From Acidimicrobiia bacterium (GTDB lineage: Bacteria > Actinomycetota > Acidimicrobiia > Spongiisociales > ZC4RG35): DNA of 58,412 nt. The translations under genes were made by a program, and so were the position numbers. Numbering within the stretch: the stretch's first letter is position 1; every line of letters begins with the position of its first letter. The stretch spans positions 1 through 58,412 of the forward strand of contig JAICGW010000002.1 of NCBI GenBank assembly GCA_025922945.1. Reading direction: 5' to 3'. The notes beneath the pieces are model-generated. The model was not told where the DNA came from and searched no databases. It was given only the letters and a program-made list of their open reading frames with translations. This document shows positions 8,953-50,933 of the stretch, one piece after another.

Positions 8953-9615
8953 GTGCAGACCGTGGCTGGACAATCGCATCGATCGACCCCTAACGGCCAG
9001 AGCAAGTGGCGACTGGCTCTCCTGGCCGGCGCCGTCATCGCACTGGCCGGTGCCTACGTCATCCTCAGTTCGGGCGATCTTTTCCGTGGGCAGCTCAGCC
9101 CGCAGGAGATCGCCGAACGCTATCTCGAGGCTCGGAACGAATACGACGCCAAGGCTGCCCGTGCCCTCATCGCACCAGACGCTCTGCTCAACGACGTACC
9201 ACTGATCGGGTTCCACGAGCTCGATGCTGGTTTCGAGGCGCTCTCGATTTTTGAGATCTCCCAAGACCCATTCGAGTGCATGGTGGGTGACAGGGAAACC
9301 TGGGTGAGTTGTAGTTATCAGCTGGACTCGGCCCTGAACGATCCGGTGGGCTATCCGCCGGTCGCCGGGAAGATCAACTTCCGGATCGCCGATGGGAAGA
9401 TCGTTGAGCTCCAGCACAATTTCCCCTTCGGTTTGTACTCCCCGTTTGTTTGGCGGCCATTCGTCGATTGGTTAATGGCCGAGCATGGCGAGGCGTCGTT
9501 CGATCGGATCTACCGCATTTTGCCCAGCGGGACCGCGACTCCGCGCCTGGACTCAGAAGCCCTTAGTTACGCCCGGACGGCGGTCGCCGACTACCGCGCG
9601 TCGGTCAGGCCTTGA
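8953..9615 (+). CDS. hypothetical membrane-anchored protein (possible NTF2/SnoaL-like fold)
   Basis: One TM helix 'WRLALLAGAVIALAGAYVIL' followed by a soluble domain. GTG 8953 is preceded by 'aagga'. No family recognised with certainty. Confidence 0.55.
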   Translation: MQTVAGQSHRSTPNGQSKWRLALLAGAVIALAGAYVILSSGDLFRGQLSPQEIAERYLEARNEYDAKAARALIAPDALLNDVPLIGFHELDAGFEALSIFEISQDPFECMVGDRETWVSCSYQLDSALNDPVGYPPVAGKINFRIADGKIVELQHNFPFGLYSPFVWRPFVDWLMAEHGEASFDRIYRILPSGTATPRLDSEALSYARTAVADYRASVRP

Positions 9616-9622
9616 AGGGAAA

Positions 9623-26705: not shown

Positions 26706-29600
26706 TTACGGCAATCGGTCTGCCGTCTCGGCGACGGTCATGGTGCCGAGTCGCTCCGCCAACGTCGCCAGCATCGCCATTGCTACTTGCGGTCGTTCCT
26801 CAAGAATTCCCTGTAGTTCGGACGCTCCCAGGGCTAGACCCTGCACCCCGTCGTCGCCGGCCACCACATCCGCCGAGCGCGACGCTCGTCGGAGAAAGGC
26901 GAGCTCACCGACGATCTCGCCCGCTCCATAAGTTCGAATCTCGTCCCGACCGTGTCGGATCTCCACCTCGCCCATCACGATCACAAGCACTTCGTCGCCG
27001 ACATCACCCTGGTGATAGATGACTTCGTTCGCCTCGTAGCGGCGCTCGACCGTTACCTGTGCAATCTTCTCTAGGTCTTCGGGGTCGACCTCGGAAAACA
27101 TCGCTACCCGTTGCAAGGCAAGTACCCGCTCGAGGGGAGTAAGAAGATGGCTGTCGCGCACGGTCCATCTTGACACTCGCGTTGGTAGGTCACCTGCGCT
27201 CGCCTCCTGCAGAACACGTCTCGCCAGAGCTCGAATCCATTCGTCGAAGTCGTTGGCGAGTTCCCGCAGGCTCGCCATAGGATGGGCGACGTCTGGGGCC
27301 GCGGTGTCCTCGAGCAACGCGATCAATCCGCGTACGGCGACGTTGCCATGGAATGAATCCAACGCCTCCAGGGAGTAGGCGCGCGTGTCGGGGTCCGAGG
27401 ACCAGACCCCGCGGCGGACCCAGGGCATCTCAAGAAGCCGCGGATCCCGGAACGCGAGAAGCGCCCAACGCTCCAGGCGACGCTGACGCAAGAGCAGGAG
27501 CCGGCGGAGGTAATCGAGGACCGGACCGGCAGTGAGGCCGGCAAGCGCTAGCTGGTGACGACGCAGAAATCGCGCCCGTTCTACTTCGCCGGCTATCCAG
27601 TCTTCGAGCCGCTCCGTCCCTAGGCCGGCATCGGTCATCGCCACCAGCGCCGCTTCTGATGCTCTAACCGACCCGCGCGCCAAAACGTCGATCAGTTTCT
27701 CAGGGGAACTCGACGCCAGGCTTGCGGCCGCCGCGGCCCGCACCTTGATCGATGAATCGTCGAGCAGTTGCTCGAGGATGCCGATGCTCGCCGATCTCGT
27801 TGCCATGGCTTGAGCGGCCGCCGCCCGCACCCGCCGGTCGGGATGGGCCGCGAATTGCTCGGGTGGGATAGCGGAAAGCGAAGGCTCTTTCGCCAGCGCC
27901 AGCAAGGCAGCAATCAGGGCTGATGGATCGCCCGACGCCAGCATCTCGTCGACAACTCTTCGACCTCGCTCACCTTTCACCATCTTCGCTGCTTTCGCTC
28001 GAACAAGGGGGTCGGCATCGCCGAGGACCGTGTCCGCGCTTTCCCCGAGCCTTTCTTGGTGTTGATCAAGCACAGCCAGAGCTGACAAGCGGACGCGGCT
28101 CGACGGGTCGAACAGCATTGACCGAGCGATGTCGACTGAGGCGAGGCTCTCCAGCGCGGCCGCCCGCACCGCCGGGTCCGGGTCGACCAATCGGGGTGAC
28201 AGCTGGCTGCGAGCCGACTCGCCTTGGAGGCGACTCAAGGTTCGGAGAGCCAAGAGCCTGGCCCCTGGCTCGCGATCGCCGAGAGTTTTGACCAGAGCGG
28301 CGAGGCCCTCGGCGTCGAGAGTCGGCTTCTGCGCGCTAGGTAGCGGGGCTGCGAACACATCGACCATCCCCTGCTTCACCGCCGTTGCCAACGCGTTCGT
28401 GTACGCGGGTCGCATTCTTACTACCAGCACCAATGTCACCAGGGCCAGTGACAAGCCGATGGCGCTGCTGGCATCGGGCGACAGCCTGCTGGCGAGCATC
28501 AACAGCCCACCGGACGCCATGGTTCCAAGCTGGGTTGGGACGCCGTTGATGAATGCCATGACCTGGCTACGTCGGCGCCCCGGTATCACGTTGAAGAGTG
28601 CGCTCCATGCGGTGCCGCCGATGGCGTTGACTGCCACCCACTGCCCCGCCCGAACGATGCTTGCTGACAGGAGTCCAAAGGAAATCAGCCAAGACCCAAA
28701 TCCCGAGACATAGACGAGCGGAACGATCAGGAGCGTGGCGACAACTCCGATGTGAGCGAACAGGCGATTGACCAAGAAAAAGGAGGCCAAGAATGTCAAG
28801 GCGGTGGCCGTGGCTGAGAAGAGTCCGAGAAAGCCGGCCACTTCGGCCTCGCTCGCAAACGAATCGGTGACGACGACGCTGAATGGAAAGGAAACGAGAA
28901 AGAAGAGCACGGAGAAGGCTCCGGCCGTCCAAGACATGAGCCTCAAAAGAGAAGTCGTACGGGCCAAGGCCAAGCCTGCTCGCAGGTCATCCAGAAGTCC
29001 GGTTGGGGTCGCCGAGTCCGAGCGCCAGAAGAAGCGGGTTACACGAGTAGTCGTAACGAGGGCGCTGGCCATCAGCAAACCGGCATGGACGAAAAGCAGG
29101 TTCTCGGTGCCGATGGCGCTGGCGAGCGGGCCAGTGACGAGATTGCCGACGACCCCGCCACCAATACCCGCGGTGGCGAACAAAGGGAAGAGCCGCTTGG
29201 CTTGACGCGTCGTACAGACCTCGCCCGCGGCACTCCACATGACTGTGTACGAGAGCAGAATTGCGATCTGAGCTCCGAGCCAAACGGCGACGTAAACCCC
29301 TGACCAGCCGGTAGCAACTCCGAGGCGCTCGAGCAGCACCATCCCCGAAAGAGCAGCCAGCAGGGGAGCAAGCCAGCGAGCAGCCCCTCGGCGTCCGAGG
29401 CCGACGGTATAACCCAACGTCGCCAGCATCAGCACCGGGCCCGAGGTGAGGATCATCAGCGGGAGGTACTCGACTCCGAAGCGAAGAAAGAAGAGCGTGT
29501 CGGCGGCATTCGAGCCCAGCCCGTGCCCAGCCTGGGTGACGGCGAAGAGACCGGCCATCCAAGCGACCATGCGACCTTCGCCCGCCCGGATGTCGACCAT
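26706..29600 (-). CDS. fusion protein: MFS/nucleotide-translocase-like transporter + HEAT repeats + cyclic-nucleotide-binding domain
   Basis: 964 aa. Residues 1-420 are polytopic. Residues 430-720 carry repeated 'D.D..VR.AA...L' HEAT/PBS-lyase-type units. Residues 823-952 form a cNMP domain with 'GEIVGELAFL....RSADVVA'. Confidence 0.7.
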   Translation of the reverse strand: MVDIRAGEGRMVAWMAGLFAVTQAGHGLGSNAADTLFFLRFGVEYLPLMILTSGPVLMLATLGYTVGLGRRGAARWLAPLLAALSGMVLLERLGVATGWSGVYVAVWLGAQIAILLSYTVMWSAAGEVCTTRQAKRLFPLFATAGIGGGVVGNLVTGPLASAIGTENLLFVHAGLLMASALVTTTRVTRFFWRSDSATPTGLLDDLRAGLALARTTSLLRLMSWTAGAFSVLFFLVSFPFSVVVTDSFASEAEVAGFLGLFSATATALTFLASFFLVNRLFAHIGVVATLLIVPLVYVSGFGSWLISFGLLSASIVRAGQWVAVNAIGGTAWSALFNVIPGRRRSQVMAFINGVPTQLGTMASGGLLMLASRLSPDASSAIGLSLALVTLVLVVRMRPAYTNALATAVKQGMVDVFAAPLPSAQKPTLDAEGLAALVKTLGDREPGARLLALRTLSRLQGESARSQLSPRLVDPDPAVRAAALESLASVDIARSMLFDPSSRVRLSALAVLDQHQERLGESADTVLGDADPLVRAKAAKMVKGERGRRVVDEMLASGDPSALIAALLALAKEPSLSAIPPEQFAAHPDRRVRAAAAQAMATRSASIGILEQLLDDSSIKVRAAAAASLASSSPEKLIDVLARGSVRASEAALVAMTDAGLGTERLEDWIAGEVERARFLRRHQLALAGLTAGPVLDYLRRLLLLRQRRLERWALLAFRDPRLLEMPWVRRGVWSSDPDTRAYSLEALDSFHGNVAVRGLIALLEDTAAPDVAHPMASLRELANDFDEWIRALARRVLQEASAGDLPTRVSRWTVRDSHLLTPLERVLALQRVAMFSEVDPEDLEKIAQVTVERRYEANEVIYHQGDVGDEVLVIVMGEVEIRHGRDEIRTYGAGEIVGELAFLRRASRSADVVAGDDGVQGLALGASELQGILEERPQVAMAMLATLAERLGTMTVAETADRLP

Positions 29601-37279: not shown

Positions 37280-39088
37280 GTGCCAACACTGACAGCTGAC
37301 ATTGCGCCGCTGTGGCGTTTTCGTGCTGCCGCCATGCGCCGGGCAGTGGCGCTGACCTGGGTTGTGCTGGCCATCCTCGCTGCTCAGGCGGTCAGACAGT
37401 GGGAAGAGAACTTCGACGAGCTCGGGTTCGCCATCGCGGTGGTGGTCATGGCCCTGGTGCTTCTGGCTTCCTCCCTGATCGACTGGTACCGGGTCATGCC
37501 CACCCATCGCGGCCCCTGGGCCACCCTCGGCTGGACCGCCAGCATCAGCCTCTGTCTGGTGGTCGTCGGCACTCAGCCCGGCATGGAAACGCTCACCCCT
37601 CCGATGTTCTTCGGGGTCGTGGCCCTGTCTGGTCTGGTCCTCGATCGTTTCAAACACGTTCTCATCACGATCCTCGCGGTGGCCTCCCTGGCATTTCTGG
37701 CCTTCACGTCGAACCAGCCGCTCAACCTCGCCTCGCTCCTGGTCCAGACCTTCTCTGTCATCGTCGTTGCTACCGCCACCGCCCTGATGGGCTATGAGTT
37801 CGAACAAGAGTCGACTCGGAGCGCCCGCCGTCTCACCGATCTCCAACGCCAACGGGCCGACTTCGAACGTCTTTACGCCGTGTCGGCGACCCTGGCCGGA
37901 GCGGAATCGCTCTCCGAGGTATTGCCCGAGCTGGTGGGACGAATCTGCACCTATCTCAATGCGCAGGTGGGAGTGGTCATGCTCTACGTCCCCGACTCCC
38001 ACGAGCTCAAGCTCATGGATCCCATCTGGGTCACGGGCTACCCGCTCGAAGCTGGCGACGTCTCCGTCTCGGTAAGCGCCGGTGGTGTCCTCTCCCAGGT
38101 GTTCAAATCAGGAAAGCCCGTGCTCTTGGATCAGATCGCCGAGCGCTCCGATAGCTATGGGATCCTCGGTGATCTGGGGTTGAAGGAGGCAATGGTCGCT
38201 CCCCTGCGGGTGGAGCAGTTCAAAGTGGGAGTCATCGCCGTGGGTGATCCGGTGGACGGTTCCTTTGGACGGGATCAACTTGAAGCCCTTTCCTCGCTCG
38301 GCGCTCCGGCCGCCCTCGTGCTCTCCCAGCTTGGTCGCTATGAGGCCGTCGCCGAGATGACCAGGCGGCTTGAAGAAGTCGCCCAGATGAAGACCGACTT
38401 CGTGTCTGTCGTCAGTCACGAACTTCGAACGCCGCTCACCTCGATCATCGGCTCACTTGACACCGTTGCCCGCCCCGAGCTCGCGCCCCAGGCGGAAACC
38501 GCCCGCAACCTCCTCAATACCGCCCGCCGTCAGGCAGGTCGCCTGCAGCGTTTGATCGAGGATCTCTTGATTGTCAGCCGCCTGGAGAGAAACGCCGTTC
38601 CCATCCAGCTGGAGAAGGTCGTCCTTGAGAAGTTCCTTTCCGAGCTGGCCGCCACGCTGCAGATTCCCGACCTCAGTATCGAAGTGATGCCGGCCGATCT
38701 CACCGTCCTCTCCGATCCCGATCACCTCAACCGCATCTTTTTGAACCTGTTGGAGAACGCCATCAAGTACGCCCCCAGCAGCCCGGTGGAGGTGCGGGCG
38801 GCCGCCAGGGGAAATCGGGTGGAAGTGGCGGTGAGCGATCACGGAGCGGGGATTCCGTCCGACATGCGGGAAAGGATCTTCCACCGCTTTACCCAGCTCG
38901 AGGGCTCGGCGACCCGCACGCGCGGCGGGACCGGCCTCGGGCTCAACATCGTGAAGGGACTGGCCGAGGCGATGCACGGAAGCGTGGAACTCATCGACAC
39001 GCCGGGAGGGGGAGCCACCTTCGTCGTCAGTCTTCCGCTCTCGGAGCCCGCACCCGCCCTGGCGTACCCTCGCTACTCGGTGGGCTGA
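37280..39088 (+). CDS. membrane GAF-domain sensor histidine kinase (no adjacent response regulator)
   Basis: About 5 TM helices, a GAF-like region, H-box 'SHELRTPLTSIIG', N-box 'LLENAIKYAP', G-boxes 'DHGAGIP' and 'GGTGLGLNIVKG'. ATG 37334 is an alternative start. Confidence 0.88.
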   Translation: MPTLTADIAPLWRFRAAAMRRAVALTWVVLAILAAQAVRQWEENFDELGFAIAVVVMALVLLASSLIDWYRVMPTHRGPWATLGWTASISLCLVVVGTQPGMETLTPPMFFGVVALSGLVLDRFKHVLITILAVASLAFLAFTSNQPLNLASLLVQTFSVIVVATATALMGYEFEQESTRSARRLTDLQRQRADFERLYAVSATLAGAESLSEVLPELVGRICTYLNAQVGVVMLYVPDSHELKLMDPIWVTGYPLEAGDVSVSVSAGGVLSQVFKSGKPVLLDQIAERSDSYGILGDLGLKEAMVAPLRVEQFKVGVIAVGDPVDGSFGRDQLEALSSLGAPAALVLSQLGRYEAVAEMTRRLEEVAQMKTDFVSVVSHELRTPLTSIIGSLDTVARPELAPQAETARNLLNTARRQAGRLQRLIEDLLIVSRLERNAVPIQLEKVVLEKFLSELAATLQIPDLSIEVMPADLTVLSDPDHLNRIFLNLLENAIKYAPSSPVEVRAAARGNRVEVAVSDHGAGIPSDMRERIFHRFTQLEGSATRTRGGTGLGLNIVKGLAEAMHGSVELIDTPGGGATFVVSLPLSEPAPALAYPRYSVG

Positions 39089-41900: not shown

Positions 41901-42512
41901 TTATCCTCCGGCGCCGCCGAGCAGGGCCTGCTTCTCCCGGTTGTACTCGTCGTCGGAGAGCTTGCCCTCATCATGGAGGCGGGAGAGGATCTGGAGCTGC
42001 TCGGCTTTCGACACTCCCGTCCCACCTCGTTCGAGGCTGAACATGCGGTCCTCACGGGCTCTGTAAATGAGGTTCTTCATGTCCTCCGCCCGCGGAATAT
42101 CTCGGTAGATGGTTTGTCCTTGTTCACCGGCCGATTCGATCATCACATCGCCGCTGCTAACCATCCGCTCGAAGGCAGTTTGATGGAAGGAAACGGTGTT
42201 GATCATCTCCAGCGGTATCTCTTTGCCGGATTTGGAGATGAATCCCGACCGATGAATCACGCGCTCGTTGGTGATGACATGTTCGGTCGTCCACCAATTG
42301 ATCACGCCGCGGATGGTGAAGATAACCCAGAGGACGCCTACCACCAACGGGCCCCATGTCGCTAACGCTCCACTGGTGAAGAAGGCGAGGAAGACAATTA
42401 TCACCAAGGCCAAGAGCGAGATGCCGAGCGGTCCGATGATCGCGGTCCAGTGGGGTTTGAACTCGGCGACGACTTCCTCGCCAGGACTGAGAAGTTTCTT
42501 GGGATAGGCCAC
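41901..42512 (-). CDS. bacterial PH (YdbS/T-like) membrane protein with C-terminal SHOCT domain
   Basis: 203 aa. 'LSPGEEVVAEFKPHW', two TM helices, a PH-like region, C-terminal 'LSRLHDEGKLSDDEYNREKQALL' (SHOCT pattern). GTG start. Confidence 0.72.
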   Translation of the reverse strand: MAYPKKLLSPGEEVVAEFKPHWTAIIGPLGISLLALVIIVFLAFFTSGALATWGPLVVGVLWVIFTIRGVINWWTTEHVITNERVIHRSGFISKSGKEIPLEMINTVSFHQTAFERMVSSGDVMIESAGEQGQTIYRDIPRAEDMKNLIYRAREDRMFSLERGGTGVSKAEQLQILSRLHDEGKLSDDEYNREKQALLGGAGG

Positions 42513-42550
42513 GAACCGGGAGGCTAGCTCCGGGTCCTGTTCGGTTGCCT

Positions 42551-42626
42551 CGCGAAAACAAAGCAGTCATCGCGAAAACGAACCAGGGGGTTGGTCTTGA
42601 CGCATCGACTTGGGCTGCATTATGTT
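42551..42626 (+). promoter_or_regulatory. module A: two CGCGAAAA boxes + putative -35/-10 promoter
   Basis: CGCGAAAA at 42551-42558 and 42571-42578 (20-nt spacing). TTGACG 42597-42602, 18-nt spacer, TATGTT 42621-42626. Confidence 0.4.
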
Positions 42627-42632
42627 GCCGCC

Positions 42633-42797
42633 GTCCGATAGACAGTTTTCTGTAGATCGGATGTGCGAGAGCCTTCGGGCTGTCGCAGAAGTCCTTCCTG
42701 GACAGGGGACCTTCGGGTCGTCGAGTCCACAAGGAAAGACCAGAAGGGCCCCGAGAGGGTGGAGATTCGTCGAAGCTCCCTCGGGGCTTCTTCTTTG
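42633..42797 (+). ncRNA. candidate structured small RNA A (unclassified)
   Basis: Lies between putative promoter A and terminator A. Contains two hairpins with cUUCGg loops (gagCC-UUCG-GGcug and gACC-UUCG-GGUc) and a ccgat/acag hairpin. No credible ORF. Confidence 0.3.
42748..42797 (+). terminator. hairpin + T-rich tail (module A)
   Basis: GCCCCGAG (42748-42755) pairs with CTCGGGGC (42780-42787), followed by TTCTTCTTTG. Confidence 0.45.
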
Positions 42798-42809
42798 CTC
42801 AGGCTGCTT

Positions 42810-42884
42810 CGCGAAAAGCAATCAGGAACCGCGAAAAATAAGGCAGCTCTGAATTTGACTCGCGGCTGGTCCGTCGAATACGTT
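42810..42884 (+). promoter_or_regulatory. module B: two CGCGAAAA boxes + putative -35/-10 promoter
   Basis: CGCGAAAA at 42810-42817 and 42830-42837 (20-nt spacing). TTGACT 42855-42860, 18-nt spacer, TACGTT 42879-42884. Same geometry as module A, offset about 259 bp. Confidence 0.4.
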
Positions 42885-42890
42885 GCCCCC

Positions 42891-43046
42891 CGTCAGGCAG
42901 GAGGTGACTCCAGCCGGACCCCGAGAAGCCGAGAGGCTTGGAGGGAAGCGAAAGAGGGAACGAATTTCGGTTCGGAGCCTCGATCGCAGAGGACCCCGAG
43001 AGGGTACGAGCTCGTCTCGCAGCTCTCTCGGGGTTTTCTCATTGTT
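42891..43046 (+). ncRNA. candidate structured small RNA or 5' leader B (unclassified)
   Basis: Lies between putative promoter B and terminator B. GNRA hairpin AAGCC-GAGA-GGCUU (42926-42939). GGACCCCGAGA occurs at 42916 and again in the terminator arm at 42991. Confidence 0.3.
42993..43046 (+). terminator. Rho-independent terminator (module B)
   Basis: Perfect 10-bp stem ACCCCGAGAG (42993-43002) / CTCTCGGGGT (43025-43034), followed by TTTCTCATTGTT. No upstream + strand CDS to terminate. Confidence 0.6.
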
Positions 43047-43112
43047 CGAGGTTTCCGATATCTGAAATCTGACGTCTGATGGACAAATCTCATTCGTGTC
43101 ATTCCCTTCTCG

Positions 43113-43118
43113 TATAGT
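43113..43118 (+). promoter_or_regulatory. -10 hexamer positioned for a leaderless transcript of the nuclease gene
   Basis: TATAGT lies 7 nt upstream of ATG 43126. There is no Shine-Dalgarno in between. Confidence 0.35.
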
Positions 43119-43125
43119 CGGGGCC

Positions 43126-43905
43126 ATGACGTTGGAGACGCTGTCGCCCAGTCGAGCTGGAGACTTCAAGGCCTGTCCCCAGCTATTCCGTTTCCGGGCG
43201 ATCGATCACCTTCCGGAACCGACTTCACCCCAGCAGGCCCGCGGTACCACCGCCCATCTGGCCCTGCAACGGTTCTACGAACTGGCTCGCACCGAGCGCT
43301 CACCCGAGCGTCTCTTCGACCTGTTTCGCGAGGCCTGGGGCGAGCTGCGAAACGAAGAGGAGTTCGCCGGGCTTTTTGCATCGCTCGACGAAGAACGAGC
43401 CTGGGGCGTCGACTCGATGACCCTTCTGGCCAACTATTTCCAGCTCGAGAACCCCGAAACCTTCGATCCCCTGGAGAGGGAACTCGACCTGTTGGAGCCG
43501 GTGGGCGAGGGCATGATGATCCGCGGCATCCTCGACCGGGTTGATCGACGTCCTGACGGTCGTATCGTCATCACCGACTACAAGACAGGCTCCGCTCCTC
43601 CGGAGACCTATTCCATCCCGGCCTTCTTCGCCCTCAAGATCTATGCCTTGTTGATCCGCCGGCATTTGGCCGAGACCCCCGCCGAGGTGAGGCTCCTTTA
43701 CCTCAACGGCCCGACGATGTATCGGTTCCCGGTCGACGATCGGCAGCTCGATGCGATGGAGAAACAACTTGCCGCCCTCTGGCTCGCCATCAACAGGGCG
43801 ATCGAACGCAACCACTTTCCACCGCGGACGGGCCCCCTTTGTAATTGGTGCTCCTTCCGCTCCATCTGCCCGGCCTGGGAGAATCTGGAACAACTGGCCG
43901 GCTAG
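43126..43905 (+). CDS. RecB-family PD-(D/E)XK exonuclease with Cas4/AddB-type 4-Cys cluster
   Basis: 'LSPSRAGDFKACPQLFRFRAIDHL', 'GILDRVD....IVITDYKTG', C-terminal 'CNWCSFRSICPAW'. ATG 43126 preferred over GTG 43096. Confidence 0.82.
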   Translation: MTLETLSPSRAGDFKACPQLFRFRAIDHLPEPTSPQQARGTTAHLALQRFYELARTERSPERLFDLFREAWGELRNEEEFAGLFASLDEERAWGVDSMTLLANYFQLENPETFDPLERELDLLEPVGEGMMIRGILDRVDRRPDGRIVITDYKTGSAPPETYSIPAFFALKIYALLIRRHLAETPAEVRLLYLNGPTMYRFPVDDRQLDAMEKQLAALWLAINRAIERNHFPPRTGPLCNWCSFRSICPAWENLEQLAG

Positions 43906-43980: not shown

Positions 43981-44847
43981 GTGAACCGGGGAGCAAAATT
44001 GAGGCGAGCAATTTTCTTGGGAACGGCCACCGTCTTGTGGGTCGTAGCCCTGCAGTTCATCAGCGGCGCCATCGAGCCACCCCGAGAGGTTGACCTCACC
44101 GATCTCAACCTCACCGCGGAGCCCAAACCCCTCCCCACCAATCTGGTGTTTGCCCTCGACAGCAACATCGGTGTCGGGTTCCCGACCCTCGATCAGTTCT
44201 TCCGGCGGACGGGCAAATCACCCGCCTCGACCTTCAGCTCCTTTGGAGTCCCGGTGACGACGGCCGCCAGTTCCACCACGACCACCACGACCAGCACCAG
44301 CACGACGACCACCACCCAACCCGCTCCCGCTACCACCGCCCGCCCGGTCGCAACCACCGCGCCGCCCCCCACTACCGCGCCCCCAGCGACCACCGCCCCT
44401 CCCGCTACCACGGCTCCCCCCACGACGGCGCCACCCGCCACTACCCCACCCAACACTGCTCCTCCCACCACCGCCGCCCCGGCGGGGAGTTTCAACGCCG
44501 CCGCAGAGTCGGACTTCGCCTCCCGCATCAATGGACTACGAGCTTCGGTCGGGAAACCGGCCCTGGCTGGAAACGGCGAACTTCAGAACTACGCCCGCTG
44601 GTGGGCGAAGTACATGGCCGAGCACAACAGCTTCGCCCATTCCGACATCGGAACCCTTCTCAACCCCTGGACCATCGTGGGTGAGAACATCGGCGCCGGC
44701 GGCAACGTCGCCGGAATCTTCGGAGCATTGGTGAACAGCCCCGGGCACTACAACAACATGGTCGAGGCTCGATTCACGGCTGTTGGCGTCGGCGTCTACA
44801 TCGACGCCTCGGGCAAGTTATGGACTGCCCACGTGTTCGCCGGCTAG
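43981..44847 (+). CDS. membrane-anchored CAP/SCP (YkwD-like) domain protein with Thr/Pro-rich linker
   Basis: N-terminal TM helix, about 75 aa of T/P/A repeats, C-terminal CAP domain 'NYARWWAKYMAEHNSFAHS...GENIG....SPGHYNNMV'. Confidence 0.8.
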   Translation: MNRGAKLRRAIFLGTATVLWVVALQFISGAIEPPREVDLTDLNLTAEPKPLPTNLVFALDSNIGVGFPTLDQFFRRTGKSPASTFSSFGVPVTTAASSTTTTTTSTSTTTTTQPAPATTARPVATTAPPPTTAPPATTAPPATTAPPTTAPPATTPPNTAPPTTAAPAGSFNAAAESDFASRINGLRASVGKPALAGNGELQNYARWWAKYMAEHNSFAHSDIGTLLNPWTIVGENIGAGGNVAGIFGALVNSPGHYNNMVEARFTAVGVGVYIDASGKLWTAHVFAG

Positions 44848-44889: not shown

Positions 44890-47877
44890 GTGACCTTGGA
44901 GAAGCCGGACCGGCGCATCGGGCCCTCCGATTGGGAGGAAGCCCTAGCCGCCACGGAAGGCCCACAGATAATCGTCGCCGGTCCCGGAACCGGAAAAACC
45001 GAGTTCCTCGTGCGTCGAGCGCGGTTCCTGATCGAGGAAGGGCTCGCCGACCCGGCTGAGGTCCTCGTCCTCACCTTCTCCCGTCGAACCGCCGCCGACA
45101 TCTCCTCCCGCTCATCTCGAGGACCTGTTCCGATCCCAGGAGTTGCCACTTACCACGCCTTTGCCCGGCGCCTCCTCGAGACGTACACCCCCACGAGCGG
45201 ACTGCCCGGGACAATCCCCACGCTGCTCACCACTCCCGAGCAGACGGCCTTGGTGCGTGAGCTGTTGGCCAAGGAAGATCCCACCGATTGGCCTGTCCCC
45301 CTCAGCGCGTTGCTCACATCTGCCACGCTCGCCACCGAGATCGCCGACTTCTTGCTGCGGTGTCAGGAGCGAATTGTCAGTCCCGAGGCGCTCGCCGGGC
45401 TCGCAGCCGGCTGGGATCGATGGCGAGCGTTGCCGCGATTCATGGAGCGGTACCTCGCCGAGCTGAAGGCCCGAAACCGCCTCGACTACGGCAGCATCCT
45501 CGCCCAGGCAATGAGCCTCCTCGAATCAGACGGCGTCAGGCGGGATGTCAGCCAGCAGTTTCGGTATCTCCTGGTTGACGAATATCAGGACACCTCCGCC
45601 GCCCAGGCGCGCTTGCTCGAGTTGCTCTCGGCCGAACACCGCAACATCACCGTCACCGGTGATCCCTATCAATCGATTTACTCCTTCCGCGGCGCCGACC
45701 TCGAAAACGTGGCCCTGTTCCCCGACCGATTCCGCTCCGCGGATGGGAGCCCGGCCCAGCGATTGATCCTCACCACCAGCTTCCGGGTTCCGGCTCAGAT
45801 CCTCGACAGCGCCTTGCGCATCGTTTCCGGCGGCGACCTCCCGGGAGGGGCGGGAAAAGTCACCCCGGCTCCCCATCTGGGCCGGGTCGAGGCCTATGTC
45901 TTCGATCAGGCGAGCGGCGAAGCCGATTGGATCGCCGGAAAGCTCGAGCGACTTCATCTCGAGGGCCGGATCCCGTATTCCCGGATGGCGGTGTTGGTCC
46001 GATCCAGTCGCCACTTGTTGCCCGAGCTCTCGCGCGCCCTCGAACGCCGCCAGATCGGCCACCTGCGTCCCGATCGTCGTTTGAACGACCATCCCGCGGT
46101 GCGGATCATCTTCGATCTCGCCATCGCCGCGTTCGCCCAGTCCCAAGAGACCGGTCCGGGCTGGGCGGAGGAAGCCGATCAGGCGATGCGACGCCTCCTG
46201 CTGGGGCCGCTGCTCTCCATATCGCTCGGTCGCGAGAGGGAATTGCTCCGAGAACGACGCCGGACCCGAAGGTCGTGGAGCGACATACTGGCGGCCAGCG
46301 GGGTTGGTTCGCCCGAGCTTCGCCAGCTTCTCGCCGATCCCCAATGGTGTCGGGGAAGCTCCGCCGCCAATGGGTTCTGGCAGGTGTGGAGGACTCTTCC
46401 CGAACTCGTCACTCTGGTCGAAGATCCCGAGTGCGGGGACTTTCGACGAGCGTGGACCGAGCTCTCCCAGGCTCTCGATCAGCAACGTGAGCGCGACGCG
46501 TCGGTCGATCTGATCGAGTATGAGCGCCTCTCGAGTCAGGATGACTTCGAGGCGGTTCCGCTGCTTTCGATCGAACCGGGTCAAGGCGACCAACTAACTC
46601 TGACGACATTGCATCAGGCCAAGGGTCTTGAATTCGACGTCGTCATCATCGCTGACGCCGCTGAAGGCGTCTTCCCCAGTCTCCAGCGGCGTAACGCCCT
46701 CCTCCGGCCCGATCGGCTCAACCCGGGGGCCAGCGCGGAAGAGGCGGTCCGCTTTCGACTTCAGGAGGAAATGAGGTTGGCCTACACGGCCATGACCCGC
46801 GCCCGCAGCCAGGTCATCTGGACGGCCACCGCCGCCGCTATCGATGAGGGAGAACGGAGACCGTCGCGATTTCTCCTGGCCGCCAGCGGCGCGGCCTCAT
46901 TCGACGATCTCGGCCCCCCGGGCGCCGACCCCATCCCAGTGACGGCGGCTGAATTGCAAGCTCTACTCCGTCTCACGGTTTCAGATCCCACCGCCCCTCA
47001 GCCCGAACGGCTGGCGGCGCTTTCGGTGCTCGCCGCCCCCGGTCAGACACTGTGGGACGCCCGCCGATTTGCGGGAACCGCCGAAAAGGGGCCAGACACC
47101 GGCGTTATCACACTGCCTCTGCGGATGGCTCCGACGAGTGCTCAGAGCTATGAGGACTGCCCGCGCCGCTACGTCTTCGAGCGACATCTCGAGGCCACCG
47201 ACGTTGCCAGCCCCTACGCCCACTACGGAAGCCTGATCCATCTCGTGCTCGAACGGGCCGAGAGCGCAGCCATCGATTCGGGGCGGCCGCGCGCTCGGGT
47301 CGACGAGGCGCTCGACGAATTGGAACGAGTGTGGTCAGAACTGGCCGACTTTGGATCCCCGATCCTCAACGACGCCTGGAAGGCCAAGGGCAGAAAACTC
47401 ATCACGAATCTCTATGAGAACTGGCCCGGTAACGGCGCCATCGGGATCAGAACCGAGAAGAAAGTGACTGCCGACATCGGCAACGTGGTGTGGCGGGGAA
47501 GGATCGACCGCATCGAGCAGCCTGCCCCTGGACAGCTCCGCATCGTCGACTACAAGACCGGCACTCAGCAGCCGTCGATCTCCGAAGCCGCCTCGTCGCT
47601 CCAACTCGGCTTCTACCTGCTGGCGGTCAAGACCGACCCCGAGCTTTCCGCCCTTGGTGACGCCACCGAGGCCGAGCTCTGGTATCCCGAATGCCAGCAG
47701 CCGCGCCGCAAGTTCGATTACGCCAATCTGAAATCGGTCATCGATCGGCTCGGGGCCCTGACCGGAGGAATCCTCAACGAGCAATGGGATCCCAAGCCAG
47801 GCAAGCAGTGTGAGCGATGCGGGGTGCGCCTGGTTTGTCCCGCCTGGCCCGAAGGTCGGGAGGGATTCCGCCTGTGA
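44890..47877 (+). CDS. adnA: helicase-nuclease subunit AdnA (UvrD-like motor + RecB nuclease)
   Basis: 995 aa. 'VAGPGTGKT', 'LLVDEYQDTS', C-terminal 'GRIDRIE....LRIVDYKTG' and 'CERCGVRLVCPAW'. First gene of the pair, as in mycobacteria. Confidence 0.85.
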   Translation: MTLEKPDRRIGPSDWEEALAATEGPQIIVAGPGTGKTEFLVRRARFLIEEGLADPAEVLVLTFSRRTAADISSRSSRGPVPIPGVATYHAFARRLLETYTPTSGLPGTIPTLLTTPEQTALVRELLAKEDPTDWPVPLSALLTSATLATEIADFLLRCQERIVSPEALAGLAAGWDRWRALPRFMERYLAELKARNRLDYGSILAQAMSLLESDGVRRDVSQQFRYLLVDEYQDTSAAQARLLELLSAEHRNITVTGDPYQSIYSFRGADLENVALFPDRFRSADGSPAQRLILTTSFRVPAQILDSALRIVSGGDLPGGAGKVTPAPHLGRVEAYVFDQASGEADWIAGKLERLHLEGRIPYSRMAVLVRSSRHLLPELSRALERRQIGHLRPDRRLNDHPAVRIIFDLAIAAFAQSQETGPGWAEEADQAMRRLLLGPLLSISLGRERELLRERRRTRRSWSDILAASGVGSPELRQLLADPQWCRGSSAANGFWQVWRTLPELVTLVEDPECGDFRRAWTELSQALDQQRERDASVDLIEYERLSSQDDFEAVPLLSIEPGQGDQLTLTTLHQAKGLEFDVVIIADAAEGVFPSLQRRNALLRPDRLNPGASAEEAVRFRLQEEMRLAYTAMTRARSQVIWTATAAAIDEGERRPSRFLLAASGAASFDDLGPPGADPIPVTAAELQALLRLTVSDPTAPQPERLAALSVLAAPGQTLWDARRFAGTAEKGPDTGVITLPLRMAPTSAQSYEDCPRRYVFERHLEATDVASPYAHYGSLIHLVLERAESAAIDSGRPRARVDEALDELERVWSELADFGSPILNDAWKAKGRKLITNLYENWPGNGAIGIRTEKKVTADIGNVVWRGRIDRIEQPAPGQLRIVDYKTGTQQPSISEAASSLQLGFYLLAVKTDPELSALGDATEAELWYPECQQPRRKFDYANLKSVIDRLGALTGGILNEQWDPKPGKQCERCGVRLVCPAWPEGREGFRL

Positions 47878-50800
47878 TCGTCCCTACCGCTGAACAGCTG
47901 ACTGTCGTTGAGCATCCACTCGAGCCGCTCCGGGTCGAAGCCGGTGCCGGGACCGGCAAGACGGCCACTATTGCCATGCGGGTAGTTCACCTCGTTAACA
48001 AGGTTGGCCTCGAGCCCGAGTCGATTTTGGGGATCACCTTCACCAACAAGGCCGCGGCCGAACTGGCCGACCGCATCAGGGCCGCCCTGGGGACGACCTC
48101 GAACCTCGATCCTGGTCGGGAAGTCGAAGTCCACACCTACCACGGCTTTGCCCACCAGCTCCTGCGTGAGTACGGGGCGCTGGTGGAAGTGGAGCGAAGC
48201 ACCGAGGTCATCACTCCCACCTTCTCCCGCCAACTCATCGAGGTGGTAATGGCCAACGTCGAGCTCCCGGCCCTGAACCCGGCCAACCGGGGGAATGTGG
48301 ACGACATTCGCCGCCTCGGCTCCGCACTCGGCGACAATCTGCTGGAACCGCATCAGATCGACATTCCATCCACCCTTGATCAGGCCTGGTCGACGCGGGC
48401 CTCCCTCCTCAAAGGCCTCGGGGCGTACCAGCAGGAGAAGCGCCGCCGGGGAGTGGTCGACTACTCCGACCTCATCCTCCGTGCTCAGCAGCTGGTGAGC
48501 AAGTATCCCGAAGTCGCCAACGAATTCCGCTCTCGCTATCGCGCGGTGATGCTCGACGAATATCAGGACACGAACCCCGCCCAGCGCGAGCTTCTTCGTC
48601 TGCTCTTCGGTGATGGCTTCCCGGTGATGGCCGTGGGCGACATCGATCAGACTATCTATGAGTGGCGCGGGGCCTCCCCCCACAACTTCGCCCAGTTTCC
48701 AACCCACTTTCCCCGGTCCGATGGCCAGCCGGCCCCAACCCGCTCTTTGACCCTCAACCGTCGTTCCCTGCCGGCGATTCTTTCGGTAGCCAATGCCGTC
48801 CGGGAGAAGACCGGGTCCGGGCAAAAACTCCTGCGCCCCCTCGACGGCTCAATCGGTGGCGAGGTTGCGGCTTCGTGGCATGACGATGCGGTGGCCGAAG
48901 CCGAAGACATCGCCCGCCGAATCCAGGAGCTCTCCTCAGCCTACGAATGGCGCGACATGGCGGTGCTGTTCCGGAAGAACAAAGACATGACCTTGGTCCA
49001 CGATGCCTTGCGGGCGGCCGAGATCCCCGTCGAGGTCGCCAACCTCGGTGGCCTTCTGGCCGTACCCGAAGTCACAGACGTCCATGCCTGGTTGCGCCTC
49101 TTGCAGGTTCCCGAGGACTCGCCGGCGTTGTACCGGATCTTGCTCGGGTCGCGTTTCCGCTTGGGACTCGGTGATCTGGCTCATCTCTCCAACTGGGCCC
49201 GAGGTCTCAACTGGGACGCTGACGAGGAAGCGACCGTCCCCCAGCACACGTTGCTCGAGGCGATCGACCACCTGGACGATCTCGATGGCTTGCGACCGGC
49301 GGCGCGTGTCGCGCTCGAGAGATTTCGTGAGGAGTACCGATCACTGCTCGCCACCGCTCAGGGCGTTTCGCTCGTCGAGCTTTGTCGCCAGATCCTCGAC
49401 CGCACCGGCGCCTGGAACGATCTCGCCGCCATGCCGGCCAGCACCCAACTCTCCGCCCGTCTCAACCTCTACCGGTTCCTCGACCTCACCGAGGACTGGA
49501 GCCCCCTCGAGGGCGCCCCTTCGCTGGGAGCCTTCCTGCGCCATCTCGAGGCGATGGCCGAGGAACGGTCTGAGGAGCTCGACACCGCCCGGCTCTCGGG
49601 CGAGAACGCAGTGACCCTGGTCACGGTCCACCGGGCCAAGGGCCTCGAATGGGATGTGGTTTTCCTTCCCGCTTGCTACCAGGGCAACTTCCCCACCCGA
49701 TCACAAGGCTTCGACAACCCGCTCACCAACGGTCGCTATCTCCCCTACGAATACCGCCTCGACCAACAGTGGCTGCCACCTATCGGCCGCGAGCGCACCG
49801 ATGCCGAGAACAAGGATCTCCTCAGGGCCGCGCACGAACAGCAGGAGTGGCGGATCGCCTACGTCGCCACCACTAGGCCCCGCCAGCGGCTTTTTGTCAG
49901 CGGCGCCTACTGGTACGGCGCCTCCGAAACCAACGCCAGAGCCGTAGGGCCCAGCGAGGTGTGGACTCTCATTGCCGCCCAACCCGGGACCCGGGTCGAC
50001 TCACGTCCCCTCAAGGCTCCACCGCAGCCCTCCCTGCTGCGTTTTGAGCCGGACGCGGCGGCTCCCGACCCTCTCTTTCTCGATGGCTGGGAACAAGCGC
50101 TGCGCAACGAGCTGACGACGCCGGGCTGGGCCCGAGCTCTCGCCGGCGATGAAACCTCAGTCGACCGGAAGCGGACTGAATTCGAGCAGATGATCCTCGA
50201 TCTCCCGGTTCCGCTGGCCGAACCTTCCGAGCACTCGGTGTCCACGTCCGTCACCGGTCTCGTCACGTATGCGTCTTGTCCGCGGCGATTCTTCTGGTCG
50301 GAAATCGAACGGCTACCCCGGATGTCCAGCCAGCAGGCTCGCGCCGGCACCATGGTCCATCGAGCGATCGAGCTCCACAACCGTGGCCACATCCCGCTCG
50401 AGGATGTCGACTGGAACTCTGTCGATCCCTTCGAAGTCAGCGGTGAGCGTCCCGAATCCAGCTGGTCGCGCTTCCAGCGCAGTCGCTTCGCCCAGGTCCC
50501 TCCGATCATGATCGAGCATCAGTTCGTGATGAGGGTGGGGGCAATCGAAGTCAAAGGGCGAATCGATGCCGTCTACGACGGAGGAGGGTGGGAGATCGTG
50601 GACTTCAAGACCGGGTCTCCGGCACCAGACGAAGCCACCAATGAGGCGCGCATCGTTCAGCTCCAGGCTTATGCCAGCGCGGCTCGCGGCGGTCACCTGG
50701 GAAGACGAGCGCCGGAATCACTTCAGGTCACATTCGCCTATTTCGGGTCGCGCCCCGCCGAGAGCACTTATGCCGTGGACGCTCAATGGGAGAAAACCGC

Positions 50801-50933
50801 CGCCGAGCGACTGCAATCTCTGGCGGGCGGCATCGAGGCGAAGGAGTGGACGCCGACGCCGTCGATGGGGTGTTACTCCTGTGACTTCGTCCGCTTTTGT
50901 CCCGCCGGCCGCGCCTTTACCCAGCGCGTTTGA
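47874..50933 (+). CDS. adnB: helicase-nuclease subunit AdnB
   Basis: 'AGAGTGKT', 'VMLDEYQDTN', 'VTVHRAKGLEWD', nuclease 'GRIDAVY...WEIVDFKTG', 'CYSCDFVRFCPAG'. GTG 47874 overlaps the adnA TGA (GTGA). Confidence 0.87.
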   Translation: MIVPTAEQLTVVEHPLEPLRVEAGAGTGKTATIAMRVVHLVNKVGLEPESILGITFTNKAAAELADRIRAALGTTSNLDPGREVEVHTYHGFAHQLLREYGALVEVERSTEVITPTFSRQLIEVVMANVELPALNPANRGNVDDIRRLGSALGDNLLEPHQIDIPSTLDQAWSTRASLLKGLGAYQQEKRRRGVVDYSDLILRAQQLVSKYPEVANEFRSRYRAVMLDEYQDTNPAQRELLRLLFGDGFPVMAVGDIDQTIYEWRGASPHNFAQFPTHFPRSDGQPAPTRSLTLNRRSLPAILSVANAVREKTGSGQKLLRPLDGSIGGEVAASWHDDAVAEAEDIARRIQELSSAYEWRDMAVLFRKNKDMTLVHDALRAAEIPVEVANLGGLLAVPEVTDVHAWLRLLQVPEDSPALYRILLGSRFRLGLGDLAHLSNWARGLNWDADEEATVPQHTLLEAIDHLDDLDGLRPAARVALERFREEYRSLLATAQGVSLVELCRQILDRTGAWNDLAAMPASTQLSARLNLYRFLDLTEDWSPLEGAPSLGAFLRHLEAMAEERSEELDTARLSGENAVTLVTVHRAKGLEWDVVFLPACYQGNFPTRSQGFDNPLTNGRYLPYEYRLDQQWLPPIGRERTDAENKDLLRAAHEQQEWRIAYVATTRPRQRLFVSGAYWYGASETNARAVGPSEVWTLIAAQPGTRVDSRPLKAPPQPSLLRFEPDAAAPDPLFLDGWEQALRNELTTPGWARALAGDETSVDRKRTEFEQMILDLPVPLAEPSEHSVSTSVTGLVTYASCPRRFFWSEIERLPRMSSQQARAGTMVHRAIELHNRGHIPLEDVDWNSVDPFEVSGERPESSWSRFQRSRFAQVPPIMIEHQFVMRVGAIEVKGRIDAVYDGGGWEIVDFKTGSPAPDEATNEARIVQLQAYASAARGGHLGRRAPESLQVTFAYFGSRPAESTYAVDAQWEKTAAERLQSLAGGIEAKEWTPTPSMGCYSCDFVRFCPAGRAFTQRV

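Follow-up and report, generated by a model that had tools for sequence, protein, structure and literature searches.

Predicted structured RNA genes with paired upstream boxes form a family beside the nuclease/AdnAB locus of Acidimicrobiia

Small RNAs encoded by several paralogous genes, each with its own promoter, its own terminator and a regulator-binding site at a fixed distance upstream, include the streptococcal csRNAs, which carry the CiaR direct repeat, the Vibrio Qrr RNAs, which depend on LuxO, and the Pseudomonas RsmX, RsmY and RsmZ RNAs, with their GacA upstream site. The locus described here, part of a 58,412-base stretch of DNA from an Acidimicrobiia bacterium (hereafter the window), shares this anatomy, and its copy number likewise varies, from 1 to 5. 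It nonetheless differs from the described systems in several respects: (i) its boxes, CGCGAAAW at a spacing of 20–21 bp, match neither CiaR, LuxO nor GacA sites; (ii) the conserved single-stranded seed of the Qrr RNAs and csRNAs is missing from the family-wide consensus; (iii) GGA, which Rsm/Csr RNAs display in hairpin loops, as expected of a sponge, is confined here to stems and internal loops; and (iv) the most conserved part is the terminator stem, and the host class is Acidimicrobiia, both unlike csRNA, Qrr and Rsm. While the family is new, the kind of gene, a regulated small RNA gene, is a familiar one. Our preferred reading, to which we assign a probability of roughly 0.6, is that the window carries two autonomous, regulated structured-RNA genes of one Acidimicrobiia-wide family, which would be controlled by an activator and act in trans through a protein or a compact fold.

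Closer in lineage is the actinobacterial 6C RNA, also a small, GC-rich, multi-hairpin RNA that has its own terminator and is conserved across an actinobacterial group. It is defined by C-rich loops, whereas the loops here are GNRA and UUCG tetraloops, and Rfam, including the 6C model, gave no hit. When the window and 16 homologous loci were compared with Rfam 15, no match reached the gathering threshold, as had been anticipated from the sequence, and relaxing the E-value to as much as 5–10 yielded only chance-level hits, for example to miRNA and snoRNA models. A literature search on structured RNAs or RNA biology in Acidimicrobiia returned nothing relevant.

6S RNA and Ms1, the latter known from Actinobacteria (PMC9130861, PMC4191392), are also stand-alone, very stable structured RNAs found in the actinobacterial lineage, and we considered whether the present RNAs could be their RNA-polymerase-binding counterpart in Acidimicrobiia. 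Such a function would agree with the strength of the promoters, which are close to consensus, and with the high stability of the folds; a long form of the family (310–460 nt) falls into the Ms1 size class, and Acidimicrobiia are not mentioned in a survey of Ms1 in Actinobacteria (PMC9130861). However, 6S is a rod with paired ends and a central bubble, whereas the RNAs described here are predicted, in their individual folds as in the consensus structure, to be strings of at least four consecutive, independent hairpins with unpaired 5' and 3' ends and no such bubble. The Ms1 family is moreover defined by its neighbourhood, a HAD-IB hydrolase and an oxidoreductase gene (PMC9130861), the place of which is taken here by bPH_2/SHOCT, AMP-binding and nuclease/AdnAB genes, and Rfam offered no match even at the relaxed E-values. 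We therefore regard an RNA-polymerase-binding role as quite improbable.

Two predicted RNA genes in one intergenic region

The RNAs occupy a 613-bp gap between a bPH_2/SHOCT gene and a gene for a PD-(D/E)XK nuclease (Table 1). The original prediction took this gap for the largest non-coding stretch of the window, the others measuring about 140 bp or less, and its GC content as visibly below that of its flanks. The first of these statements is plausible, as other apparent gaps contain small genes where checked, but the stretch 9039–9622 carries just a weakly supported ORF; the greedy ORF tiling meant to address the point was too crude, choosing a spurious ORF inside the gap itself. The dip in GC content exists but is only marginal (0.56–0.59 versus about 0.60–0.63). 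The gap holds no credible ORF, as had been stated: the ORFs at 42610–42852 and 42663–43079 cross terminators and both units.

A small protein-coding gene was considered as an explanation of the region and rejected, as the units are rearranged in relatives and the alignments are rich in 1–2 nt indels and paired substitutions. In at least one public assembly, a spurious 119-aa gene is annotated across these RNAs.

Table 1. Features of the RNA locus and its surroundings (positions in the window; RNA ends are predicted)
Feature	Position	Strand	Remarks
bPH_2 + SHOCT protein gene	41901-42512	-	flanks the RNA gap
-10 of the bPH_2/SHOCT gene	42521..42526	-	TAGCCT; own element, 8 nt before GTG at 42512
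Box A1	42551..42558	+	CGCGAAAA; distal element upstream of RNA A; exact match, box pairs kept in relatives
Box A2	42571..42578	+	CGCGAAAA; proximal; starts 20 nt after A1, ends 18 nt before -35
RNA A promoter	42597-42626	+	TTGACG, 18-nt spacer, TATGTT; promoter scan; same layout in 58 homologous units
RNA A	42633..42797	+	~165 nt, four hairpins and U-rich tail; fold, covariance-model match, long-form alignment
RNA A, P1	42632-42663	+
RNA A, P2	42664-42687	+	cUUCGg
RNA A, P3	42691-42740	+	cUUCGg
RNA A, P4	42742-42794	+
P4 core of RNA A	42749..42786	+	CCCCGAGAGGG ... CUCCCUCGGGG
Box B1	42810..42817	+	CGCGAAAA; upstream of RNA B
Box B2	42830..42837	+	CGCGAAAA; ends 17 nt before -35 hexamer
RNA B promoter	42855-42884	+	TTGACT, 18-nt spacer, TACGTT; sequence reading, regular-expression scan, kept in relatives
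RNA B	42891..43046	+	~155 nt, four hairpins and U-rich tail; fold, covariance-model match, covariation
RNA B, P1	42892-42919	+	GUGA
RNA B, P2	42920-42945	+	GAGA
RNA B, P3	42948-42987	+	UUCG
RNA B, P4	42988-43039	+
P4 core of RNA B	42994..43033	+	CCCCGAGAGGG ... CUCUCUCGGGG
Nuclease gene promoter	43097..43118	+	TGTCATTC-N8-TATAGT; own promoter, ends 7 nt before ATG 43126
PD-(D/E)XK nuclease gene	43126-43905	+	flanks the RNA gap; ATG at 43126
CAP-domain protein gene	43981-44847	+	beyond the nuclease gene
Two UvrD-helicase/nuclease proteins, AdnAB type	44890-50933	+

Each of the two modules consists of a box pair, a promoter, a run of hairpins and a 3' hairpin, at the coordinates and in the geometry originally described. 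Aligned with each other, they are 75% identical, the conserved blocks being the boxes, the promoter elements (TTGAC, and TAYGTT with the GCC after it) and the terminal hairpin, with a divergent middle. The two cUUCGg hairpins of A, the GAGA hairpin of B and the shared terminal hairpin had all been pointed out before, and each is present and folds as claimed; the loops of all four hairpins in both RNAs are only 3–5 nt long. Both RNAs are far more stable than expected from their composition, with minimum free energies of -85.8 (A) and -83 kcal/mol (B), corresponding to z-scores of -5.3 and -5.4, and none of 200 shuffled sequences was equally stable. In each, the last stem is followed by a U-rich tail, CUUCUUCUUUG in A and UUUUCUCAUUG in B, as in an intrinsic terminator. 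The terminator scan reported A only, and the tails of both are imperfect; imperfect U-tails are common in high-GC actinobacteria. It is very likely that these are stand-alone structured RNA genes, with transcription and ends predicted from sequence; each would begin at a sigma-A-type promoter and stop at a hairpin trailed by a U-rich stretch.

Conservation of the fold and the two length forms

To the extent that relatives of the nuclease gene were found, they belong to metagenome-assembled genomes of Acidimicrobiia. One scan of species-representative genomes, with labels nearly all Acidimicrobiia, provided 80 loci (L001–L080), with nuclease identities of 65–98%. The neighbours of the RNA locus are the bPH_2/SHOCT gene, an AMP-binding gene, and the PD-(D/E)XK nuclease gene followed by AdnAB-like genes. 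BLASTN located the terminal hairpin in most of these loci, often in several copies and often on the opposite strand. A strict, oriented hairpin pattern gave 139 matches in 73 of the 80 loci, usually two per locus and between 1 and 5. Built on 31 aligned short-form sequences (relatives of module B), a covariance model scores RNA B at 131 bits and RNA A at 51.5 bits (E = 2.7e-13), and gave no further convincing match in the 58-kb window. Among the relatives, it recognises members at 79 of the 80 loci, in front of the same nuclease/AdnAB genes; an additional member locus, L340, lies on a 3.48-Mb contig (ERZ25072999:ctg321998).

In the consensus of the 31 sequences, P1 is capped by a GNRA loop, P2 by GAGA or UUCG, P3 by UUCG and P4 mostly by UUCG. 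In this alignment 93% of the base-pair cells are paired and compensatory changes affect 23 of 41 pairs, whereas slid partners pair only 30–57% of cells and none of 500 shuffles reaches the observed values; the covariation score is 0.42 versus 0.07–0.13 for slid partners. Extension to 65 distinct sequences raised these values to 94.7% of cells and 30 of 41 pairs (slid-partner controls over both alignments, 30–62%). The lower P4 stem is invariant: none of the 65 sequences departs from its CCCC/GGGG, its A-U and G-C pairs or its G·U wobble. Outside P4, its purine-rich 5' flank and the U-rich tail, conservation is limited to the GNRA loop of P1, the pairs that close this loop and a few isolated G residues. 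The type of the P1 loop is associated with one position in P4, GYGA occurring with U and GYAA with C, an association that may be purely phylogenetic.

UUCG and GNRA loops are exchanged among relatives, and these swaps, together with the compensatory changes, indicate selection on the RNA fold. The original prediction was that conservation in relatives would distinguish genuine RNA genes from generic repeats, and box–promoter geometry and RNA structure are indeed kept in about 80 genomes of the class, where compensatory changes are plentiful. Comparative evidence thus backs the proposal of two paralogous, independent short-transcript genes with putative regulator sites, their ends being predicted.

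As P4 is palindromic, conservation of its stem could also act at the DNA level. The elements might accordingly be REP- or MITE-like palindromic repeats, bidirectional terminators or operator palindromes, and it is true that the reverse complement of P4 fits a loose hairpin pattern and that units have repeatedly been inverted. Dispersed repeats, however, should recur elsewhere, and within the DNA searched the copies are found at the RNA locus only. The terminal hairpin has no copy elsewhere in the 58-kb window, and in the homologous loci all hits of at least 35.6 bits, a cut-off set by the weakest best hit accepted for a locus, fall inside the RNA block adjoining the nuclease gene. Three true members from a metagenome scan blind to genomic context (L107, L184 and L200) share this same locus, and none were found in viral contigs (19 matches to the P4 pattern, 0 recognised by the covariance model). 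Compensatory changes, tetraloop swaps and a conserved strand-specific promoter also speak against an explanation at the DNA level, which we consider very improbable.

The distances between box pair and hairpin fall into two classes, about 150–170 nt (short form) and about 310–460 nt (long form). The predicted folds of long forms, at -180 to -245 kcal/mol, are again successions of hairpins capped by tetraloops. Short and long forms share both ends. RNA B is the universal short form. In loci L005–L014, the RNA that ends in an A-type P4 (GGUGGAGAUUCGUCGAAGCUCC) is about 310–345 nt long and has its own box pair, and it has the 21-mer GGGGACCUUCGGGUCGUCGAG in common with RNA A of the window. The length of the A-type RNA is intermediate in L003 and L004 and shortest in the window, L001 and L002. 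Judging from these alignments, RNA A is an internally shortened derivative of the 310–460 nt long form; the view that A and B are paralogous twins holds insofar as the two are related, but not as to A being a simple twin of B.

Promoters, boxes and flanking genes

The octamer CGCGAAAA has exactly four copies in the 58,412 bases of the window, always on the forward strand and always in this gap (Table 1). Four copies within 290 bp, at fixed phasing, had been taken to exclude chance. The number of copies in the whole window is ordinary (shuffle mean 2.5, with 21 of 100 shuffles reaching at least 4); what is unusual is their clustering into two pairs with 20-nt spacing, 259 nt apart. An arithmetic estimate from the shuffle frequency gives about 5e-5 expected box pairs per window.

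The arrangement recurs in the relatives. A promoter of the form TTGACN-N17/18-TAnnnT lies about 140 nt before the hairpin in 58 units, with box pairs near -185 and -165; in these units the paired CGCGAAA(A/T) boxes are 20–21 nt apart and lie another 17 nt upstream of the promoter. In 664 kb of DNA searched, 144 box pairs were detected, of which 120 are followed by a hairpin on the same strand and most of the remaining 24 by promoter-like sequence. A regulator-type site at a fixed distance precedes each copy in 139 distinct units. Box 2 is separated from the -10 element by about 40–41 nt in short and long forms alike, and the pair ends 17–18 nt before -35 in the window and 17 nt before it in the family consensus. 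Throughout the class CGCG does not vary and the A-tract hardly does, with no conserved sequence between the paired boxes. A regular-expression scan showed that the TTGAC -35 is mostly absent from long-form promoters, which have a weaker TTG(C/T)-type -35 instead; weak or missing -35 elements fit control by activation.

We think it probable that the boxes are a protein-binding regulatory site. A single dedicated DNA-binding protein would touch both boxes, which lie two helical turns apart and are centred near -57 and -77, from the same face of the helix, contacting CGCG through the major groove and the A-tract through the minor groove, and would activate transcription. A GC core beside an A-tract is a site suited to a winged-helix protein; the comparison, with proteins of the BldC and PhoB types, is an analogy rather than an identification. 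Like BldC and response-regulator winged-helix sites, the boxes form a direct repeat rather than a palindrome, each with a GC part and an A/T tract, but BldC repeats are contiguous 9-bp units (AATTNNNN(C)), whereas here two 8-bp boxes stand 20–21 bp apart (PMC5859096).

Neither a box-binding candidate nor an adjacent regulator gene was found among the neighbours in the window and in the homologous loci; genes inserted beside the RNAs in some loci resemble, in sequence, multi-pass membrane transporters. To our knowledge, a box spacing of 20–21 bp fits no regulator family that could be named, and CGCGAAAA has only unrelated uses in the full-text literature. Scanning metagenome contigs for box pairs gave at least 120 stretches among the matches listed, mostly due to chance and at every GC content; the only true family members among those listed were the three mentioned above. 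The matches listed for viral contigs resemble chance. A GAF-HisKA kinase gene about 4 kb away is shared with L340, a weak lead only. Box A1 also lies about 25–35 nt upstream of the -10 of the divergent bPH_2/SHOCT gene.

In the window RNA B stops 80 nt short of the nuclease gene, and module B had been proposed as a possible leader of the RecB-like nuclease and AdnAB genes, with its terminator as the control element. Similarly, in many genomes a bPH_2/SHOCT or AMP-binding gene follows the long form in the same direction, 50–110 nt after its end, and the long form might then be a cis-acting leader or attenuator of the bPH_2/SHOCT and acyl-CoA-ligase genes. The other genomes speak against both versions. 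In most loci the RNA genes and the nuclease gene are on opposite strands, and orientation varies unit by unit: A is forward and B reverse in L002, A reverse and B forward in L008 and L009, the units are head to head in L340, and both are forward in the clade of the window. By this comparison, single units have been inverted independently in different lineages, so that orientation to both neighbours differs between lineages, which is not how riboswitches and leaders are arranged. Furthermore, the P4 stem is invariant, unlike the expression platform of a riboswitch.

The flanking genes have promoters of their own. In 71 of 81 loci, a promoter of the form TGTC(A/G)NNN-N8-TAnnnT ends 6–7 nt before the start codon of the nuclease gene, and in the window its position 7 nt before the ATG implies a leaderless mRNA. 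For bPH_2/SHOCT, most loci have a TAnnnT element 6–9 nt ahead of the start codon, independent of RNA orientation. Both genes are thus apparently leaderless and expressed from their own predicted promoters. Own promoters for both neighbours, together with the varying orientation, point to four separate transcription units at the locus; the proposal of a nuclease leader is abandoned, and cis-acting leaders of either kind are extremely doubtful.

The shape of the nuclease promoter is reportedly that of the actinobacterial RecA-independent DNA-damage promoter of Gamulin et al. 2004. A RecA-independent damage-promoter motif does exist, PafBC acts through that motif, and adnA is PafBC-dependent in mycobacteria; the papers that establish this do not print the sequence of the motif.

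Possible modes of action

Read as autonomous genes, the RNAs would act in trans through protein binding or a compact fold rather than through pairing of a seed with mRNA. This is suggested by the lack of a conserved unpaired stretch and by the fact that nearly all nucleotides lie in helices capped by GNRA or UUCG loops. The conserved features, a GNRA loop and a helix containing an unvarying G·U pair, are of a type commonly found where tetraloops dock or proteins recognise RNA. We rate the chance of a protein-binding or tertiary-fold mode, as opposed to base pairing, as about even.

The main rival has the same gene anatomy: the RNAs may be classical trans-acting small RNAs that pair with mRNAs through a short complementary seed. 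Multi-copy small RNA genes with a regulator site and a terminator, such as those for Qrr and csRNA, are typically of this kind, the copy number found here would suit them, and in one large subgroup P3 contains an invariant 10-nt segment, GGCCCGCUUU, a possible loop or pairing seed. Across the family, however, no unpaired stretch is conserved, conservation being concentrated in the P4 helix and in the GNRA loop together with the pairs closing it; the hairpin loops of both window RNAs are all of 3–5 nt, and no target could be proposed. We regard base pairing as possible but less likely.

Within the preferred reading of RNAs that act through a protein or a compact fold, one further idea is speculative and, in our view, unlikely to be correct as a whole: the RNAs, short and long forms together, might be a new class of compactly folded RNA in which the GNRA loop of P1 docks on the invariant, G·U-containing helix of P4, or in which P4 binds a dedicated protein. 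If that protein also read the CGCGAAAW boxes, the RNA would titrate its own activator, and a tie to the DNA-damage locus, with its nuclease/AdnAB genes and PafBC-type promoter, would be conceivable.

Unusual features of the family are its invariant terminator helix, its all-tetraloop architecture, the occurrence of short and long forms with both ends in common, and a genomic position that stays the same although units invert freely.

Acidimicrobiia abound in soil, freshwater and marine communities. The analysis adds to what is known of them (i) a new RNA family, class-wide in Acidimicrobiia, with short and long forms and absent from Rfam; and (ii) a new cis-regulatory motif, which implies a dedicated regulator. 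It also makes an annotation correction possible wherever the RNA locus has been miscalled as the 119-aa protein gene. For RNA and DNA pull-downs, the helix with the invariant G·U and the paired boxes offer direct handles.

Long and amplified forms of the RNA

A long-form RNA, 310–460 nt in length as against the short form (the RNA B type), is carried by lineages other than that of the window, in L005–L014, L027, L066 and further loci. Its upstream boxes, P1-type 5' hairpin and P4 are identical in kind to those of the short form, and it is assembled from many hairpins with GNRA or UUCG caps; it is large and structured, and it has no match in Rfam. In L043, L044, L049, L055 and L068, the short form itself is present in four to five tandem copies. 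As some of these are nearly identical, and several copies within L043, L049 and L055 score equally, the sequences indicate that the copies in the amplified loci would have arisen by recent local duplication.

Reading columns 15–19 of alignment A4 against column 223, we observed that P1 loops of the type GYGA occur together with U, and those of the type GYAA with C, at the internal P4 position that faces the bulged A. This association could represent a tertiary contact, or could reflect shared ancestry alone.

Coordinates of the features discussed in this part
Feature	Location	Strand	Remark
Long-form RNA	L012 3243-3640		
Long-form RNA	L027 1408-1830		
119-aa public gene call	L340 4591-4950		spans RNA genes
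GAF-HisKA kinase gene	window 37280-39088		counterpart retained at L340
Covariance-model match	window 28200-28322	+	14.4 bits, rough E = 0.008
Stretch with a single ORF	window 9039-9622		between FtsY-like gene and 1140-aa gene
GC-rich segment	window 44200-44500		within CAP-domain gene
bPH_2/SHOCT gene -10, TAGCCT, with the start of the gene	window 42510-42526	-	8 nt before GTG
Nuclease promoter motif, TGTCATTC-N8-TATAGT, with the ATG	window 43097-43128		7 nt between motif end and ATG

Gene calls and other regions of the window

At L340, a locus on a 3.48-Mb contig that retains the whole neighbourhood, the 119-aa gene call has no Pfam match and is probably a spurious ORF. The weak covariance-model match in the window falls within a long minus-strand ORF and is probably spurious as well. 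The single ORF between the FtsY-like gene and the 1140-aa gene gave only a sub-threshold match to SnoaL_2 (E = 0.004); this stretch may be a second sizeable region that is non-coding or poorly annotated. The GC-rich segment (GC up to 0.72–0.77, with a strong negative GC skew of -0.4 to -0.5) probably codes for a low-complexity, proline-rich linker.

Promoters of the flanking genes

The mRNA of the bPH_2/SHOCT gene looks leaderless, judging from its TAGCCT element, the type of which is kept before the gene start in most loci. Because box A1 lies only about 25–35 nt upstream of this -10 in the window, the putative box-binding protein could also influence the divergent bPH_2/SHOCT promoter.

The position of TATAGT so close to the nuclease ATG would imply that the nuclease mRNA is also leaderless. 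The shape of this promoter matches that of the RecA-independent (PafBC-type) DNA-damage promoter of Actinobacteria. Since the motif is kept in 71 of 81 homologous loci, its conservation suggests that the nuclease, CAP and AdnAB genes may be damage-inducible in Acidimicrobiia too.
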